A DNA stretch of 20,485 bases from a virus (Duplodnaviria > Heunggongvirae > Uroviricota > Caudoviricetes), in the IMG/VR virus record IMGVR_UViG_2568526635_000006, positions 1-20,485 of that record; one strand, written 5' to 3'. The position numbers were made by a program, and so were the translations under genes. The notes under the pieces are model-generated. The model did no database searches. It worked only from the letters and a program-made list of their open reading frames with translations, and had not been told where the DNA came from. Shown here piece by piece: positions 8,426-20,485 of this stretch (positions within the stretch are counted from its first letter, which is position 1; each line of letters opens with the position of its first letter).

Positions 8426-11400
8426 CTATATTTTTCCGCCTACGCCTTTAAACTTCTCAATAAACGAGACGATTTTCTGGAAAACTGCCTGTTTTTTCGT
8501 TTTATATTGCGGATTTAACGGACTAAGTTTTGGTAATGTTTCGTTTAATTCTGTGCCATTTTCGGTGGCATATTCGCGTTTTAAAGACGTGCGAATATAG
8601 CGTTTTGCTGCATCTTCATTGAGATTTTCTTCTTTTATCAATGCTTCTGCTTCACGTTGCTGTTCGCGTTGAGCAAACGTAAAGAATGCGTCAATGATGC
8701 TGGCTTTGTCCGGTAAATCATCCAGGTTCGTTTGCTGAATAAAATCGACCACCAGGCCCTCTTTAGCACGGTTCCCTAGGCTTGAACGAATTAAGCGTTT
8801 GACCTCTTCGATCATTTCGCCCTTGCCTTTATTTTGTCTGTTGTGTTCGAAAATCAGTCCAAGGATATAATCCAGGTTTATTTCCTGAGACTTCAGCAAA
8901 TCGACCTCAAAAACTACGTCATCCCAGTCAGTGGTTGATTTCTCTTTTTTCTCAGCTTCTTTCTCACGGCGCCGCCAGTCGCGAATATCGTTATAGGCAG
9001 AACGATAATCCTGAATCTTGCGATCAGCAGGGAGACGAATTGTTTGCAATTCAGCGAACTTTTCATTATCCACATAATGTTCTGCTTTGAATTTTTCTAC
9101 CGCAACAGGATCGCTAAGATCGATTTGTTGCAGGGCTTTTAGCGTGGCAAATTCATCATAGTTTTGCAGGATGTTCTCGGCACGCAGGTATTCGCCAAAC
9201 AGTTTAACGAAGTCTTTCTTCTCTTTTTCACTTTCAATACTGGTAGGGTCAGGGAACCGTTGTTCCAGTTCTGAAACTACTGTCATGAAGCCGCGTTTAG
9301 CTTCACCAGTAGCAGCATCAGTAAAGCCTTCCATATACTCTGTATAACTCTTTTCTAATACCACATTTTTGGTGTTTTTGTCACCAAACAGCGTTATGGC
9401 ATCAATAGTTGAGCGTTCCAGATCCCGGAACGTGACGATATTACCGAAGGTTTTAGTCGAGTCATAAATGCGGTTGGTGCGGGAGAATGCCTGCATCAGG
9501 CCGTGAAAACGCAAGTTTTTATCGACGAATAGCGTGTTTAATGTTGGAGCATCGAAGCCGGTTAAAAACATTCCCACGACAATTAACAGATCGATATCCT
9601 GATTTTTAACCCGTTGGGCTAAATCACGATAGTAGTTCTGAAAACCGTTACTGTCGGTGCTAAAGTTAGTTTTAAAATGGCTGTTATATTCACGAATTGC
9701 AGCGTCCAGAAACTCTTTAGCACTGCTGTCCATTGCGCTGGTATCAAAAGTTTCATCGGAAATTTCACCAATGGCATTTTGTTCTTCATTGGCGGCAAAG
9801 GAGAAGATTGTCGCAATACGCAGCGGTTTATAGGTAGCCGATTTATTAGCGGCTTCTTCTTGTAACCGTTTAAACGTCGCATAATAGGCTTTCGCGGCAT
9901 CCACGCTGCTCACTGCCAACATAGCATTAAAACCTTTTGAGCCAGGGAAGGTACGGTGGGTTTTCTGGCGGAAATTATTCAGGATATATTGCGTGATTTC
10001 CTGAATACGCATGGGATGAAGAAACGCCTGCTGATTTTCAGCCGCACTCAGTTTTTTCTCGTCAGTTTCTGTCTCTAAAGACTTAAACTGTGGCCGCACA
10101 TCGTTGTAGTCCACCTTGAATTTGAGCACTTTTTCGTCACGAATCGCATCGGTAATTACATACGAATGCAATTCACGACCAAATACGCTGGCGGTCGTTT
10201 CTGAGCCTAAGGCATTTTCCGGGAAAATAGGGGTGCCGGTAAAACCAAACTGATAATAGCGTTTGAATTTCTTCTTCAGGTTTTTCTGCGCTTCTCCAAA
10301 CTGGCTGCGGTGGCATTCATCAAATATAAACACCACTTGCTGATTGTATACAGGCAGGTCGCTTTCTGCTTTCATCAGGTTATTAAGTTTCTGAATAGTG
10401 GTGACGATAATTTTGTTATCGTCCTTATCCAGATTTCGTTTAAGACCTGCGGTATTTTCCGAGCCGTTGACGCTGTCTGGCGAAAAACGCTGATATTCCT
10501 TCATGGTCTGGTAATCGAGGTCTTTCCTGTCGACCACGAAGAAGACTTTATCAATAAAGTCCAGTTCAGTTGCCAGACGCGCGGCTTTAAAGCTGGTCAG
10601 TGTTTTACCGGAACCAGTGGTGTGCCAGATAAAGCCACCGCTTTCGGGGTTAGACCAGTTTTTCGCTTTATAGGAGCTGTTGATTTTCCATAAGATCCGT
10701 TCGGTAGCTGCAATCTGGTACGGTCGCATCACCAGTAGCGTCTGACTACTGTCAAACACGCTGTAGTTCACCAGAACATTAAGCAGGGTATGTTTCTGGA
10801 AAAAGGTAGCGGTAAAGTCTTTGAGGTCTTTAATCAGCGTGTTGTCTGATTTCGCCCAGTTCATGGTGAAGTCAAAACTGTTTTTATCGCGCTTTGTCGT
10901 GTTGGCAAAGTAACGGGTATCGGTGCCGTTGGAAATGACAAACAGTTGCAGATACTTAAACAGAGAATTTTCGCTGTTAAAACTCTCTTTGCTGTAACGA
11001 TGTATCTGGTTAAAGGCCTCACGAATCGCCACGCCGCGCTTTTTCAGTTCGATTTGTACCAGCGGTAAGCCATTAACCAGGATCGTGACGTCATAACGGT
11101 TAGCATGAGAACCCGTCTGTTCAAACTGCTGGATAATCTGCACCTTGTTGCGCATGAGATTCTTTTTATCTATCAAATAGATGTTCTCAAGACGCTCGTC
11201 ATCAAAAATAAAGTCGCAAATATAGTCGATATGGATTTTACGGGTCTTATCCAGGATGCCATCGCTCGGGTTATCCAGATACTGCTCCGTGAAACGCCGC
11301 CATTCGCTGTCATTAAACACCACACCATTGAGGTTCTGAAGCTGTTCCCGAACGTTGGCCAGCATCGCCGACTGAGATTTTACGGAAATAAATTCATAGC

Positions 11401-11542
11401 CCTGATTCCGCAGATCCTGAATCAGTTCACGTTCCAGGTCCGATTCGCTCTGGTAGCTGTCGCCTGTTTGCTCGGCTTTGATGTACTTATCAAGAACGAT
11501 AAAGTTATTGGATTCAGCAATGGTGTGTGTTTGATGAGTCAT
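8426..11542 (-). CDS. hsdR: Type I restriction enzyme R subunit (HsdR), 1038 aa
   Basis: SF2 helicase motif [14 protein letters not shown] and motif [12 protein letters not shown]; N-terminal PD-(D/E)xK-like nuclease region ([18 protein letters not shown]). ATG preceded by AAAGGA. Confidence 0.92.
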
Positions 11543-11663
11543 AGCGCATCCTTTGTGCCGTCTGGCAAGGGCCGGAAGGGCTTTAAGGGCGACTTCCGGC
11601 GTGTAAAAAATAGTCTCTATATAGACCGGATGTTAAGGTGATCCGGTCGGTAGCAATGGTCAA
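11543..11663 (-). promoter_or_regulatory. hsdS-hsdR intergenic region with two stem-loops; probable separate hsdR promoter and partial terminator
   Basis: Inverted repeats GACCGGAT-n9-ATCCGGTC (11624..11648) and GCCGGAAG-n14-CTTCCGGC (11571..11600), with a T-run on the minus strand between them. Confidence 0.35.
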
Positions 11664-12932
11664 TTAGTTACTGATAGTTTCAGGTTTGGGAAAACTGAAC
11701 AGTAAATCACGATAGTACTCGTATTGTTTCTGGCGCAACTCGATTTCACGCGGAAGACCTTCGGTGATGGAATTGGTCAAAGCATCAAATTTATCCAGTA
11801 ATTTCACTATTTTTTGTTGTTCAACTAGCGATCTTTCAGGAGAATCAGGAAATGGTACTGGTATCATAAGTTTTCTTAAGTTATCATTATAAAGTCTTTT
11901 AATAGTTCCACCTTCAGATATTCCCCATTTTGCTATTTTATAGAAATAGAATAAATATTTATTTAAAACTATTTTTTCATTATTTTCAATCCAGACAATA
12001 TTGCTATCCTGGAAATATGATTCCCTACCATCAAATATAACAGTCCTGCCGATGGTCCCACTGGCAGAAATCAATACTTCGCCAACTTTAGGATAACTAT
12101 ATTTTTCTTTAAATTCATTAAATAGTTTTCTAGATATATAGGAATCGGGTTCCTTACCAAATGTCCCAATTTTATAAAATGGAATCTCTCCCTCAGAAGA
12201 TGTTTGTGATTTTAGGATTCGTTTACACATACGAACTTCACCAATTTCCCCCAAAGCTTTCCACTCAACCTCACCCTCTTTAAAACTCAACAACTGGTCG
12301 CGATAGTAGTTGTATTGTTTTTTACGCATGCTAAGCTCAGCGGTAAGCTCAGCGGTAAGTGCAGTAAATTTGTCCAGAATCCGAACGATTTCAGACTGGA
12401 TGGCTAGGGACTTTTCCGGGTTGTCCGGGCAGGGTAATGGGATTTTGAATCTTCCCATTACGGCTGAGTTCAAGTTGTTAATGGTTGAGCTATTCAACAT
12501 TTCATCAAGATATTTTTGGAAAATATCACTTGTTAAAACGTGAAATAAATAACGTGGATTTAATTTTTCATCGCATCTGACGACCCCCATAAATCCGCCA
12601 AAGTAGTAGTCAATATCAGATTCTATGTAAGCAACTTTACCGACATGTTCACGGCTACCACTTGCTGCGCTAATTAGAATGTCGTTCTTATATAGCTTTT
12701 GCGAACTCTTTACTTTGGTGTCGAACCTCACCACCTTGACATCATTTAAATTTAAACAATTATTAGACAGCGTGATATTGTTAGCGCGAAGCACTTTATA
12801 GCCTTGACCATCCGCGCTTTCACTCGATTTGCTATAAATTAAACCACGTACATATTTTGCGACTTCTCCGAGAGTCTTCCACTCAACCTCAACCCCATCC
12901 AGCAATTTTTCCAGATAACTCATCTCGCTCAT
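11664..12932 (-). CDS. hsdS: Type I restriction-modification specificity subunit (HsdS), 422 aa, EcoR124 (type IC)-like
   Basis: Two AT-rich variable target-recognition domains separated by a conserved central region ending [26 protein letters not shown], with a C-terminal repeat [16 protein letters not shown]. Start overlaps the hsdM stop (ATGA). Confidence 0.9.
12333..12368 (-). repeat. Tandem 12-bp codon repeat encoding TAEL-TAEL, with a degenerate third unit TAL, in the HsdS central conserved region
   Basis: Plus strand AAGCTCAGCGGT x2 (12333..12356) followed by AAGTGCAGTAAA. Minus-strand codons ACC GCT GAG CTT x2. Confidence 0.8.
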
Positions 12933-14491
12933 TTCTGCACCTCGCAGCCTTCAATTTCAGCCACAATCGCATCAATATCTTTACGCAACTGGTCGATTTT
13001 GCTGACCGTGGTTTTCAGCTCAGCATTCAGCTCAGCGATATCGATAATTTCGCGAGTATCTTTCGCTTCCACATAGCTGCTCACCGACAGGTTATAGTCA
13101 TTCGCGACAACAGTCTCAAACGCAACAGATTTCGCCAGATGAGCAACATCTTCCTTGCTGGCAAATACCTGCATAATCTGTTCGATATGAGCATCGGTCA
13201 GAATGTTGTTGTTAGTCTCTTTTTTGAACAGTTCGCTGGCATCAATAAACTGAACTTTGGTATCCGTTTTATGTTTAGACAGCACCAGAATATTGACGGC
13301 AATAGTGGTGCCAAAGAACAGATTCGGTGCCAGTGAAATCACGGTTTCGACATAGTTATTGTCGACCAGATACTGACGGATTTTCTGCTCCGCGCCGCCA
13401 CGGTAAAAAATGCCTGGGAAGCAGACAATCGCAGCGCGACCTTTGGCCGAAAGATAGTTCAGCGCATGTAATACAAACGCAAAGTCAGCTTTGGATTTGG
13501 GGGCCAGAACGCCAGCCGGGGCAAAACGTTCATCGTTAATCAGCGTCGGGTCATCGCTGCCAATCCATTTCACCGAATACGGCGGGTTAGAAACGATGGC
13601 GTCAAACGGTTTTTCATCTCTGAAGTGCGGCTCAGTCAGTGTATTACCCAGCTTGATATCAAACTTGTCGTAGTTGATATTGTGCAAAAACATGTTCATA
13701 CGCGCCAGGTTATAGGTCGTATGGTTGATTTCCTGACCGAAAAAGCCTTCTTCGATGATGTGGTTATCAAACTGTTTTTTCGCCTGCAACAACAGTGAGC
13801 CGGAACCCGCTGCCGGGTCGTAGATTTTGTTAACGCTGGTCTGCCCGTGCATAGCCAGTTGTGCAATCAGCTTGGAGACGTGCTGCGGTGTAAAGAACTC
13901 ACCGCCTGACTTACCGGCATTTGCCGCATAGTTAGAAATCAGGAACTCATAGGCATCACCGAACAGGTCAATCTGATGTTCGTTGAAGTCACCAAGTTTT
14001 AACCCTTCAACCCCTTTCAGAACCGCAGCCAGGCGGGCATTTTTATCTTTAACGGTGTTACCCAGGCGGTTACTGGTGGTATCGAAATCAGCAAACAAAC
14101 CTTTGATGTCAGCTTCTGAAGGATAACCGTAAGCAGAACTTTCGATAGCAACGAAGATGCTGTTTAAATCTGCATTCAGTCTGTCATTAGTATTTGCTTT
14201 CGCAGCTACGTTGCAGAAAAGCTGACTGGGGTAGATGAAGTAGCCTTTAGTTTTGATGGCATCGTCTTTAATGTCATCAGTAATTACGCTGTCATCCAGT
14301 TTCGCATAACAGATACTGTCATCACCGGCTTCAATATAACTGGAAAAATTTTCGCTGATAAAACGGTAGAAAAGTGCGCCCAGAACGTATTGCTTAAAAT
14401 CCCATCCATCGACCGAACCCCTGACATCGTTAGCAATTTGCCAGATTTGACGATGAAGCTCTGCACGTTGTTGAATACTTGTCATTTTCAT
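12929..14491 (-). CDS. hsdM: Type I restriction-modification N6-adenine DNA methyltransferase (HsdM), 520 aa
   Basis: AdoMet-binding motif [11 protein letters not shown] and catalytic motif IV NPPYS; typical HsdM N-terminus. First gene of the minus-strand hsdMSR operon. Confidence 0.92.
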
Positions 14492-16525: not shown

Positions 16526-16567
16526 ATTGCTCTAATGTATTGCTATTTCTTTAATCTAGGGTATTAT
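16526..16567 (+). promoter_or_regulatory. C1-operator-like site overlapping a sigma70-type promoter upstream of the lpa-like gene
   Basis: ATTGCTCTAATGTATTG (14 of 17 to consensus) at 16526..16542 overlaps the -35 TTGCTA (16540..16545); 16-bp spacer; -10 TATTAT (16562..16567). In P1, gene 10 (lpa) is known to be C1-controlled. Confidence 0.5.
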
Positions 16568-16612: not shown

Positions 16613-17065
16613 ATGTTACTTAACTGGCAGGGACGCCACTTCATGGAAATAAATCACTCACGAATAACATCGTACGAGATTGCGGATTACATGATCCGCA
16701 CTAAATCTCTTCTATCAGCGAAAGAACTCGCAGCAATTCTTGAAAAGGAATACCCGCATCTGGATGTCGATAAGCGCGATGTTTATCTGCGCTTAAAGGC
16801 TATCGCTGTGTCTAAGTATTCGTCTGTTTTGATTGATGACAGTACACGCCCACGTAGATTTCAGATCCACTCTCTGAATCCTGAATTCTTTCGCCGCAGT
16901 CGCGCTCCGCGCCGGTTTGATGAAAAACTCCAGAACGAACTCTATATGACGCAGGACGAAAAGGAACGCCGGGAGCACCAGCCTTGGGTAATGGCGCGTC
17001 AACTTTTCAATAAGGTGGTCCGTCAGCACCGTCATTACGGTAATGCCACATCCGCACGTATCTGA
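16613..17065 (+). CDS. lpa: Putative late-promoter activator (Lpa / gp10-like), about 140 to 150 aa
   Basis: Assigned by synteny (directly upstream of pacA, downstream of phd-doc) and by the C1-operator-controlled promoter, not by recognised sequence. Alternative start ATG 16643. Confidence 0.5.
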   Translation: MLLNWQGRHFMEINHSRITSYEIADYMIRTKSLLSAKELAAILEKEYPHLDVDKRDVYLRLKAIAVSKYSSVLIDDSTRPRRFQIHSLNPEFFRRSRAPRRFDEKLQNELYMTQDEKERREHQPWVMARQLFNKVVRQHRHYGNATSARI

Positions 17066-17151
17066 TTGATTGCTTGCCCGTTCCGGGCCTTTTGACATGT
17101 GACTTTCGTTACCCTCGCGTCAAAAAGAGTTTTATACGAAAGGAAGCATAA

Positions 17152-18345
17152 GTGACCTGGGACGATCACAAGAAGAATTTTGCTCGCCTGGCGCGAGATG
17201 GTGGTTACACCATCGCACAATATGCCGCCGAGTTTAATCTCAACCCAAACACCGCACGTCGTTATCTCCGTGCATTCAAAGAAGACACCGGAACAGCGGA
17301 CAGCCGTAAGCCAAATAAGCCTGTCAGGAAACCACTAAAAAGCATGATCATTGATCACGCTAATGATCAACGTGCAGGTGATCACGTTGTGGCTGAAATG
17401 GCTGAAAAACAAAGAGTTAATGCTGTTGTCAGTGCCGCAGTCGAGAACGCTAAGCGCCAAAATAAGCGCATAAATGATCGTTCTGATGATCATGACGTGA
17501 TCACCCGCGCCCACCGTACCTTACGTGATCGCCTGGAACGCGACACCCTGGATGATGATGGTGAACGCTTTGAATTCGAAGCTGGCGATTACCTGATAGA
17601 TAACGTTGAAGCGCGGAAGGCCGCGCGCGCTATGTTGCGTCGGTCCGGGGCCGATGTTCTGGAAACCACACTTCTGGAAAAGTCTCTTTCTCATCTCCTT
17701 ATGCTGGAGAACGCCAGGGATACGTGTATTCGCCTGGTGCAGGAAATGCGCGATCAGCAAAAAGACGATGATGAAGGTACTCCGCCTGAATACCGTATCG
17801 CGAGCATGCTAAACAGCTGTTCCGCGCAGATAAGCAGCCTGATCAACACCATTTACAGCATCCGGAATAACTATCGAAAAGAAAGCCGGGAGGCGGAAAA
17901 GCACGCTTTGTCTATGGGGCAAGCTGGCATTGTTAAGCTGGCATACGAACGAAAGCGTGAAAATAACTGGTCAGTGCTGGAAGCAGCTGAATTCATCGAG
18001 GCGCATGGCGGGAAAGTGCCGCCCCTGATGCTGGAGCAAATCAAAGCCGATCTGCGTGCTCCTAAGACAAATACCGATGATGAGGAAAGGCAAACTGCCG
18101 TCGGTGGCCCTTCTCTTGAAGATCTGGACAAAGTTGCGCGAGAACGGGCCGCCAACCGCCGCGCCGATGCTGCATTGTGGATTGAGCAACGTAGGGAAGA
18201 AATCGCCGATATCGTTGATACAGGCGGTTATGGAGATGTTGATACTGAAGGTGTATCAAACGAACCATGGCTGGAACAAGACCTGGACGAAGACGAGGAG
18301 GAAGACGAAGAAGTTACCCGCAAGCTATACGGGGATGATGATTAA
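17152..18345 (+). CDS. pacA: Terminase small (pac-recognition) subunit PacA, 397 aa
   Basis: GTG start 5 nt after AGGAAG. The P1-type pac site lies inside the gene, the length matches recalled P1 PacA, the C-terminus is acidic, and the stop overlaps the pacB start (TAATG). Confidence 0.85.
17344..17503. other. P1-type pac (packaging initiation) site inside pacA
   Basis: About 160 bp holding seven GATC-containing hexamers in a 4+3 arrangement: TGATCA x4 at 17345..17384 and TGATCG/TGATCA/TGATCA at 17475..17503, separated by about 90 bp. Each hexamer contains a Dam site. Confidence 0.85.
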
Positions 18346-19829
18346 TGGCCAGAAGTTGCGTAACGGATCCACGTTGGCGCGAGCTGGTGGCGCTATATCG
18401 TTATGACTGGATTGCTGCCGCTGATGTTTTGTTCGGCAAAACACCTACCTGGCAGCAGGATCTGATTATTGAGTCTGTGCAGGAACAGGGTAGCAAGACA
18501 TCTGTTTCGTCTGGTCACGGTACCGGGAAATCAGACATGACTTCTATCATGATCATGTTGTTCATAATCATGTATCCCGGTGCCCGCGCCATTATCGTTG
18601 CGAACAAAATTCAGCAGGTAATGACCGGTATATTCAAGTACATCAAGATAAACTGGGCTACTGCCACCAGCCGTTTTCCATGGCTTGCTGATTATTTTGT
18701 TCTGACAGAAACCGCTTTCTATGAGGTTACTGGTAAAGGTGTATGGACTGTAGTACCGAAGGGCTTTCGTCTGGGAAGTGAAGAAGCTCTCGCCGGTGAA
18801 CACGCAGATCATCTTCTGTATATTATCGATGAAGCCTCCGGTGTCAGTGATAGAGCTTTCGGTATCATCACCGGTGCTCTTACCGGACAGGATAACCGCA
18901 TCTTATTACTGTCACAGCCTACACGCCCAAGCGGCTATTTCTACGATACTCACCATAAACTGGCCAAGCGTCCTGGTAACCCTGATGGCGTTTATACGGC
19001 GATCACGCTTAACAGTGAGGAATCACCGCTGGTAACGCCAGCATTTATCAAAATGAAGCTGGCGGAGTACGGCGGGCGTGATAACCCTATGTACATGATT
19101 AAGGTACGCGGACTATTCCCTAAATCACAGGATGGCTTCCTTCTTGGACGTGATGAGGTTGAACGTGCGACGCGGCGGAAAGTCAAGATTGCCAAAGGAT
19201 GGGGCTGGCTTGCATGTGTGGACGTTGCTGGTGGTACGGGACGGGATAAGTCCGTTATCAATATCATGATGGTGTCCGGCCAGAGAAATAAACGCCGTGT
19301 AATCAACTATCGAATGCTGGAATACACAGACGTTACAGAAACGCAGCTTGCCGCCAAAATTTTCGCAGAATGTAATCCTGAGCGATTCCCAAATATCACC
19401 ATAGCGATAGACGGCGATGGGCTGGGTAAAGCAACAGCGGATCTGATGTACGAGTATTATGGTATTACCGTACAGCGTATACGCTGGGGTAAAAAGATGC
19501 ATAGCCGTGAAGATAAGAGCCTGTACTTTGATAAACGTGCTTATGCCAATGTTCAAGCCGCAGAGGCCGTAAAATCTGGTCGTATGAGACTGGATAAGGG
19601 TAATGAAACTATTGAGGAAGCGTCGAAAATCCCTGTAGGGATTAACTCCGCAGGTCAATGGAAGGTGATGAGTAAGGAGGATATGAAGAAAAAACTCAAC
19701 CTGCACTCACCAGACCATTGGGATACATATTGTTTCGCTATGCTGGCGGATTATGTTCCCCAGGATGAAGTGCTTAGCGTCGAAGACGAAGCGCAGGTTG
19801 ATGAAGCTCTGGCATGGCTTAATGAATGA
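18345..19829 (+). CDS. pacB: Terminase large subunit PacB, 494 aa
   Basis: Walker A-like [13 protein letters not shown] and Walker B-like [11 protein letters not shown]; length and position after pacA match P1 PacB. Confidence 0.88.
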
Positions 19830-19832
19830 ACA

Positions 19833-19849
19833 TTTGCTCTAATGAATTG
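19833..19849 (+). promoter_or_regulatory. C1-operator-like 17-mer immediately downstream of pacB
   Basis: TTTGCTCTAATGAATTG matches the consensus at 14 of 17 positions, 4 nt after the pacB stop. Confidence 0.35.
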
Positions 19850-19975
19850 TGTTTTTTAACTACCGATGTTACATTGAACCTGACCTCTTGCGCCTTGAGG
19901 CATTTTCGGTTTATGCTTATCAGGCACCTCATTAAAACGGGTGCCGGGATTGAGACCCCGGATAATGCAAAAGGC

Positions 19976-20008
19976 GACACAGACGCCAAAAGCGTCTTTT
20001 TTTGTGTC
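19976..20008 (+). terminator. Rho-independent terminator after pacB
   Basis: GACGC-caaaa-GCGTC followed by TTTTTTT, nested inside an outer GACACA...TGTGTC stem. Confidence 0.55.
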
Positions 20009-20188
20009 ATGCCATCGCACAGCCATACGTAGCGTTTAGCTCAGAGATCAATGGTAGTGCTGGCTGGGCTGCCGAAAGGCAGGCCGGTTCCCTTTTGCGC
20101 CGGTAGTCTCAACCCAGTCAGTGCTACCGCCATTGAGATTGAGACCTCACGCGGTAGCTCCTTAAATTAGCAAAAGGAGGCTGCCATT

Positions 20189-20410
20189 GTGGCTACTATC
20201 CCTACCCCTGCTCATCCTGAATTTATCTGGCGCTTTTACTCCTGCCAAAAACGTCACTATCACTTCGTTATTGCACCGACAGAAGATGAGGCACGTTCTC
20301 AGCTTCCTGACGCCCCATGTATTTTCTCTGCCCGTTTTTCCACTGATTCACGCAATTCTCTCAGTTACTGGTGCCTCCCTGTTAACGCTTCTGCTCAGGA
20401 GGGACTATGA
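20189..20410 (+). CDS. Hypothetical 73-aa protein
   Basis: GTG start 8 nt after AAGGAGG; stop overlaps the next ATG (ATGA). An alternative 81-aa hydrophobic reading frame (20187..20432) shares the same RBS, so the frame choice is uncertain. Confidence 0.35.
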   Translation: MATIPTPAHPEFIWRFYSCQKRHYHFVIAPTEDEARSQLPDAPCIFSARFSTDSRNSLSYWCLPVNASAQEGL

Positions 20411-20485
20411 GAACATCGTTAGTTACCCGTGAAGAGATGATCGAGGCAATTGAACAGCACACTGCCTGTATCAGTACCAGGGATA
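20407..20485 (+). CDS. Hypothetical protein, 5' fragment only (continues beyond the window)
   Basis: ATG after AGGAGGGA; 26 codons (MRTSLVTREEMIEAIEQHTACISTRD) open to the window end. Confidence 0.4.
   Translation, partial: MRTSLVTREEMIEAIEQHTACISTRD

Follow-up and report, generated by a model that had tools for sequence, protein, structure and literature searches.

A predicted P1-type packaging site of seven GATC hexamers inside the pacA gene of a P1-like phage-plasmid

The seven GATC-bearing hexamers found in the 20,485-nucleotide stretch of viral DNA analysed here, referred to as the window, very probably form the pac (packaging initiation) site of a P1-like phage-plasmid of the Punavirus group, and this site takes up codons 65-118 of pacA, a pacase gene; the probability of this assignment was put at about 0.93, and the sequence has no feature that argues against it. 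A site of this kind is already known and is ordinary for the P1 family, and the element carrying it is a new but ordinary P1-like phage-plasmid. In P1, pac comprises 161 bp inside pacA and contains seven TGATCA or TGATCG repeats, arranged as HEX4 and HEX3, together with an IHF site, a central cleavage region and control by Dam methylation (PMC10028697; PMC5557969). The positions of the corresponding elements in the window, and of the features that surround them, are collected in Table 1.

Table 1. Features of the pac site, the pacase genes and their surroundings, in window coordinates.
Feature	Position	Strand	Remarks
hsdR	8426-11542	-	
hsdS	11664-12932	-	
hsdM	12929-14491	-	
C1 repressor operator Olpa	16526-16542	+	From P1 annotation; ATTGCTCTAATGTATTG, identical
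lpa, late-promoter activator required for LPpac	16613-17065	+	Pfam BPP1_LPA, E = 2.3e-57
Late promoter LPpac (-22 box and -10 TACCCT), drives pacA and pacB	17097-17115	+	From P1 annotation; ATGTGACTTTCGTTACCCT, identical
pacA, DNA-recognition subunit of pacase (small-terminase role)	17152-18345	+	397 aa, GTG start; pac in codons 65-118
Complete pac site (HEX4, spacer with IHF site and cut positions, HEX3)	17345-17503		159 bp from first to last hexamer base
HEX4	17345-17384		40 bp; TGATCA at 17345-17350, 17352-17357, 17364-17369 and 17379-17384; spacings 7, 12, 15
IHF binding site (predicted)	17407-17419	+	AAACAAAGAGTTA; transferred from protein_bind feature of P1 record AF234172, identical sequence
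pac cleavage zone (predicted)	17427-17436		TGTTGTCAGTGCC; transferred from P1 annotation 90804/5 to 90812/13, P1-identical sequence
HEX3	17475-17503		29 bp; TGATCG at 17475-17480, TGATCA at 17487-17492 and 17498-17503; spacings 12, 11
Eighth TGATCG	17526-17531		23 bp beyond HEX3; also in P1
pacB, large terminase (ATPase/nuclease) subunit	18345-19829	+	494 aa; PHROG 2 'terminase large subunit', E = 3e-40
C1-operator-like site	19833-19849		immI-type module
isrK-family sRNA	19924-20002		immI-type module
C4 antisense RNA	20047-20134		immI-type module
icd-like ORF, followed by start of ant gene	20189-20410 (icd-like ORF)		immI-type module

All hexamers lie within the open reading frame of pacA, those of pac at gene positions 194-352. 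HEX4 and HEX3 are separated by 90 bp (17385-17474), and a pattern scan combined with a comparison to P1 showed that the distances between successive hexamer starts, including the step of 96 from the last hexamer of HEX4 to the first of HEX3, are those of P1. Each hexamer of HEX4 contains a Dam GATC site, and pac as a whole holds seven of them. The initial annotation had reported seven GATC hexamers in a 4+3 arrangement inside pacA, a description that the sequence read and the pattern scan reproduce to the base; its interval of 17344-17503 encloses the hexamers correctly, but begins one base ahead of the first T at 17345. The eighth TGATCG, which lies just beyond that interval and was not named in the initial annotation, probably does not belong to the functional site. 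It falls outside the seven-repeat site described for P1 (PMC10028697), is not conserved in Cronobacter phage JK004, where the position reads AGCTCG, and is variable in P1-like genes, column 17526 differing among their pacA sequences.

The window as a whole is not enriched in GATC, with 76 occurrences observed versus 82.75 expected. To judge the density of the hexamers, the window was simulated 2000 times with a first-order Markov model, and TGATCR on the plus strand was counted per 160 bp. The highest simulated count was four, obtained in 4 of the 2000 runs, and the observed count of seven was reached in none. Seven GATC per 160 bp were reached in nine of the 2000 runs. The local clustering greatly exceeds what chance would produce.

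For the comparison with P1, coordinates were transferred through an ungapped alignment from the pacA start codon, in which the window coordinate equals the P1 locus coordinate plus 15401. Within pacA, the P1 record AF234172 annotates the IHF site as well as the four positions of primary pac cleavage, two per strand. The initial annotation had proposed that the P1 packaging-site architecture is reproduced, and the comparison supports this: the seven hexamers are identical to those of P1 in sequence and register, and the 10 positions of 159 that differ from P1 pac (AF234172/NC_005856, approximately 90722-90880) leave the hexamers, IHF site and cut positions untouched. These ten non-hexamer substitutions (93.7% identity) change PacA at residues 70, 74, 79, 80 and 83. 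The predicted IHF site AAACAAAGAGTTA has one mismatch to WATCAANNNNTTR. After transfer to the window, the lower-strand cuts would lie at 17427/28 and 17433/34 and those of the upper strand at 17429/30 and 17435/36, giving two cuts with a 2-nt stagger, 6 bp apart, that sit 45 bp past HEX4 and 39 bp ahead of HEX3. Around the four annotated cut positions the window is identical to P1 from 17425 to 17440, the nearest substitution being at 17424. In addition, pac occupies the same location within pacA in both elements and is surrounded by the same order of lpa, LPpac, pacA and pacB.

Lack of similarity between the surrounding gene and P1 pacA had been named beforehand as an argument against a P1-type site; the two genes were found to be 95.5% identical at the DNA level. 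With 1.5 kb around the site, 20 phage records were matched at 95-99% DNA identity, all belonging to the P1 family and each with the reading frame annotated as pacA. Among these records are vB_EcoM-813R1 (99.1%), SJ46 (98.5%), RCS47 (98.0%) and P1 and P7 (95.3-95.5%). The pacA gene alone is 100% identical to that of plasmid CP063732.1 and matches 578 plasmid records, chiefly from Escherichia and Salmonella; in Punavirus phage-plasmids, including about 570 plasmids of PLSDB, it is 94-100% identical. Two P1-like plasmids of E. coli, RCS54_p (NZ_LT985263.1, 140 kb) and NZ_CP129281.1 (132.6 kb), match positions 61-20485 of the window with 100% identity, and 66% of the window aligns to P1 at approximately 96% identity, in the P1-syntenic order gene 7, 25, 26, pmg genes, phd/doc, pdcA/B, lpa, pacA and pacB. 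The remainder, which has no alignment to P1, consists of a type I restriction-modification insert and an immI-like module common to RCS47-type relatives. The hexamer motif had been presented as the strongest evidence for membership in the P1 family, a rank that it loses to the 96-100% nucleotide identity of the P1-family backbone of the window.

The proteins of the pacase and the elements controlling their expression were compared in the same way. PacA is 95.5-95.7% identical to the PacA proteins of P1 and P7 and matches PHROG 1711 ('terminase', E = 5e-204), and its N-terminus gives a weak, sub-threshold Pfam HTH match. Pfam and NCBIfam hold no model naming PacA or PacB, whereas PHROGs names both. 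PacB is the more divergent allele with respect to P1, at 89% protein identity in a gap-free alignment. Its substitutions are concentrated in residues 40-240, approximately, around the ATPase motifs, and such catalytic motifs as the alignment shows are retained; from this pattern, pacB looks like a recombinant (mosaic) allele. All five components, pacA, pacB, lpa, LPpac and Olpa, are intact in the window. In the lysogen, the C1 repressor acting at Olpa would silence lpa and, with it, the pacase. The pacA leader carries an extra A compared with P1 at about 17135, between LPpac and the pacA ribosome-binding region, and this is the sole indel relative to P1 in the stretch from lpa to pacA. In two deposited relatives pacA is annotated as two split reading frames, namely PacA and a hypothetical protein in vB_EcoM-813R1, and Pac1 and Pac2 in vB_EcoM-673R5. 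These splits suggest frameshifts or sequencing errors, whereas pacA of the window is uninterrupted.

The question whether such a site is productive arises from the nature of the closest matches. The only sequences 100% identical to positions 61-20485 are multidrug-resistance plasmids, whose 132.6 and 140 kb are above the P1 headful of about 100-110 kb, and some database relatives have a frameshifted pacA, 813R1 and 673R5 being annotated as split. Hence pac could be genuine by descent but unproductive, with the hexamers as a recent relic, if a resistance plasmid derived from P1 has decayed or become too large and no longer makes infective particles. We consider this unlikely. Both pacA and pacB are full length in the window, where lpa, LPpac and Olpa also show no or hardly any difference from their P1 counterparts. 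Genes for tail, head and lysis functions as well as c1, ant and dmt are still present in RCS54_p itself, and conservation of the hexamers extends over 68 distinct pacA sequences. In addition, the first 60 bases of the window do not match those of the two plasmids, so that the window comes from a different source. Because RCS54_p and NZ_CP129281.1, at 140 and 132.6 kb, are larger than the P1 headful, the site may, in an element of that size, start the packaging of an incomplete genome.

For a pac site in working order, cleavage, methylation dependence, headful packaging, the direction of packaging and the production of virions would be as in P1, from which they are transferred by orthology. As described for P1 (PMC10028697), the repeats are bound by PacA together with PacB, the site is bent by IHF and HU, and cleavage by the pacase takes place in the centre; a hemimethylated pac is also bound, but its cleavage waits until methylation is complete. 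The need for GATC adenine methylation in P1 pac cleavage goes back to Sternberg and Coulby 1990, as cited in PMC11260489, and is also given in PMC10028697. Virion sequencing of P1 placed two main termini 6 nt apart at the classical sites and gave approximately four genomes per concatemer (PMC5557969).

Applied to the window, this scheme would start in late lytic growth, when Lpa would switch on LPpac and PacA and PacB would be made. The pacase would bind HEX4 and HEX3 when the GATC adenines are methylated on both strands, whereas freshly replicated hemimethylated sites would be bound and remain uncut, and unmethylated sites would go unrecognised. IHF with HU would bend the spacer of about 90 bp at 17407-17419 and thereby bring HEX4 and HEX3 together, and the pacase would then cut both strands in a staggered manner around 17427-17436. 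The end bearing HEX3, the remaining part of pacA and pacB would enter the prohead, and processive headful packaging would proceed rightwards along the concatemer. P1 is packaged towards pacB, c1 and lox, which corresponds to the rightward direction on the plus strand of the window.

The methyl groups could be supplied either by host Dam or by a Dam-type methylase (Dmt) of the element itself. RCS54_p, which is identical to window positions 61-20485, carries an annotated 2265-bp Dam-family methyltransferase gene; within the 20.5-kb window the dmt gene is absent. Since P1-family elements carry their own Dam-type methylase, packaging would follow GATC methylation and the timing of replication, and not strictly host Dam. 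The initial annotation had tied packaging to the methylation state of the host. That coupling holds for the methylation status of the GATC sites, but not for host Dam alone.

Other headful-packaging phages offer a partial parallel. The pac sites of P22, SPP1 and Sf6 likewise lie in or next to the small-terminase gene, and their packaging is likewise unidirectional and processive by the headful and starts from an imprecise series of cuts (PMC5557969; PMC11260489). Searches with Pfam and PHROGs detected no relation of PacA to the small terminases of P22, SPP1 and Sf6 beyond the weak N-terminal HTH match. The pac sites of these three phages are not known to be built of Dam-methylatable hexamer repeats or to be gated by adenine methylation.

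Methylation sensitivity also underlies a different reading, according to which the GATC cluster is mainly a regulatory or sequestration element, blocked by SeqA or serving a Dam-dependent control of pacA, in the manner of GATC repeats at origins. The GATC spacings of 11-12 are close to one helical turn, and SeqA prefers closely spaced GATC sites at about that distance. Furthermore, the P1 model includes a factor that keeps hemimethylated pac uncut (PMC10028697). However, the site is internal to a gene, some 250 bp downstream of the promoter, and the P1 cuts have been mapped between the two clusters both biochemically (AF234172 annotation) and by virion sequencing (PMC5557969). A purely regulatory cluster leaves these mapped cuts unexplained, and we regard it as very improbable; at most, sequestration would add to the function as pac.

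The pac assignment was further examined through the variation of the hexamers among relatives. The sample consisted of 80 IMG/VR loci with close PacA relatives together with the window, P1, P7, SJ46 and RCS47, amounting to 85 pacA genes, 68 of them distinct. Over the whole of pacA, 193 of 1194 columns vary among the distinct sequences. Inside pac, only three of the 42 hexamer columns are variable compared with 40 of the 118 non-hexamer columns (Fisher p = 5e-4), and all three belong to hexamer 4; the non-hexamer part of pac is a hot spot of variation within pacA. Of third codon positions, none of the 14 within the hexamers varies, compared with 124 of the 384 outside them (p = 0.007). Among Punavirus relatives (P7, SJ46, RCS47, JL22, vB_EcoM-813R1 and PLSDB plasmids), 64 of the 68 distinct sequences have the seven hexamers unchanged, whereas a few have an alteration confined to hexamer 4, which is TGATCG, TAATCA or TGATTA instead. 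Some deposited genomes of this group differ from the window in having a frameshifted pacA.

Five hexamers are framed as xxT-GAT-CAx or xxT-GAT-CGx, encoding Asp-His, Asp-Gln or Asp-Arg, and two are framed as xTG-ATC-Axx and encode Ile. With two reading frames in use, the repeated unit is a DNA word and not a peptide. As judged from these alignments, the hexamers are conserved as DNA rather than as protein, which demonstrates purifying selection on the DNA words. A reading in which Asp-His and Asp-Gln repeats of the PacA linker produce the hexamers incidentally, and the DNA has no role of its own, has next to no probability: in five of the seven the encoded Asp does precede His, Gln or Arg, and D-H and D-Q repeats recur in the linker of distant relatives, but the two Ile-encoding hexamers and the invariant third positions do not fit, the enclosing protein segment is the least conserved of PacA and yet the hexamers keep their register, and synonymous mutation of the P1 hexamers lowers the phage titre approximately 9-fold (PMC10028697), which effectively refutes this reading.

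The hexamers of a pac site can also be followed in PacA relatives outside Punavirus. PacA of Cronobacter phage JK004 is 70% identical, with residues 60-110 as its least conserved part, and the few invariant residues in this segment are mostly those encoded by hexamers. Hexamers 2-7 are found in JK004 at the exact gene positions of P1 (201, 213, 228, 324, 336 and 347), whereas neither hexamer 1 nor the eighth TGATCG has been kept. All three hexamers of HEX3 are in register in JK004, in the S. arizonae plasmid CP053320 and in a further locus (L088).

More distant PacA relatives, approximately 30% identical, were examined in plasmids of Serratia, Pantoea, Xenorhabdus, Enterobacter kobei, Leclercia, Citrobacter and Acinetobacter. 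In most of them 3-7 GATC hexamers are clustered on the left, around gene positions 145-260, and another 1-3 on the right, around 310-380; the enrichment of GATC in this zone of pacA was nominally significant in eight of the ten relatives tested. The non-Punavirus phage-plasmids with PacA (JK004, related S. enterica plasmids, Serratia, Pantoea, Xenorhabdus and Enterobacter) thus resemble the window in having two GATC-hexamer clusters after the N-terminal HTH, at a distance of about 50-160 bp from each other, and the JK004 clade has six hexamers in the register of P1. They differ in hexamer number, with 3+3, 5+3, 7+2, 3+2 and other combinations, and the JK004 clade lacks P1 hexamer 1. A one-genome-per-species scan yielded no confirmed PacA relatives, and IMG/VR viral contigs and the plasmid collection were used instead. 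The Pantoea plasmid has seven TGATCA or TGATCR hexamers with a strict 12-bp period and two more 126 bp downstream. In the Acinetobacter plasmid, the pacA homologue is apparently frameshifted.

The two-cluster GATC layout thus appears to persist throughout the PacA family and to constrain the protein linker that it encodes, which is the one modest extension of what is known of pac. A stronger form of this proposal, to which we give even odds, is that bipartite Dam-methylatable hexamers are an ancestral, family-wide feature of PacA-type terminases of Enterobacterales down to approximately 30% identity, with counts that vary by lineage from 3+1 to 7+2, and that the DNA dictates the sole conserved residues of the linker, Asp-His/Gln. 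If this is true, pac sites and methylation-gated packaging would be predictable from sequence for hundreds of uncharacterised phage-plasmids, and the number of hexamers might tune the stringency of packaging and the frequency of transduction.

For the element in the window itself, pac matters as annotation only. It marks the element as belonging to the P1 family and as a predicted headful packager that starts at pac; no open question of P1 biology arises. A genome terminus would be expected at approximately 17427-17436, with packaging towards pacB, c1 and lox, which is useful for interpreting virion sequencing. Knowledge of the site is also useful for the construction of packaging-deficient helper phages or phagemids. 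In addition, the position of pac shows which adjoining DNA would be packaged first, and in RCS54_p this is a 45-kb multidrug-resistance region. That region, of approximately 45 kb and bounded by IS26/IS3000, lies just past c1 and a cre-like integrase and contains tet(A), blaTEM, aph genes, sul1, sul2, dfrA16, aadA2 and blaCTX-M-9.

An immI-type immunity module directly follows the pacB stop codon and occupies window positions 19830-20485. P1 and P7 have no such module after pacB; their alignment to the window ends at 19831, and c1 comes directly after pacB. In contrast, RCS47, JL22, 673R5 and RCS54_p have an immI-type module at this place, and in RCS54_p icd/ant occurs a second time at another place. 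On the minus strand, between the pmgS region and phd/doc at 8426-14491, lies a complete type I restriction-modification system. It is missing in P1 and P7, but common to many P1-like plasmids and phage 673R5. At the other end of the window, positions 1-60 are identical to RCS54_p at only 11 of 60 bases and have no match in P1, whereas phage phi456 matches from base 3. On these alignments, the start of the window is a mosaic joint just beyond the 3' end of gene 7.
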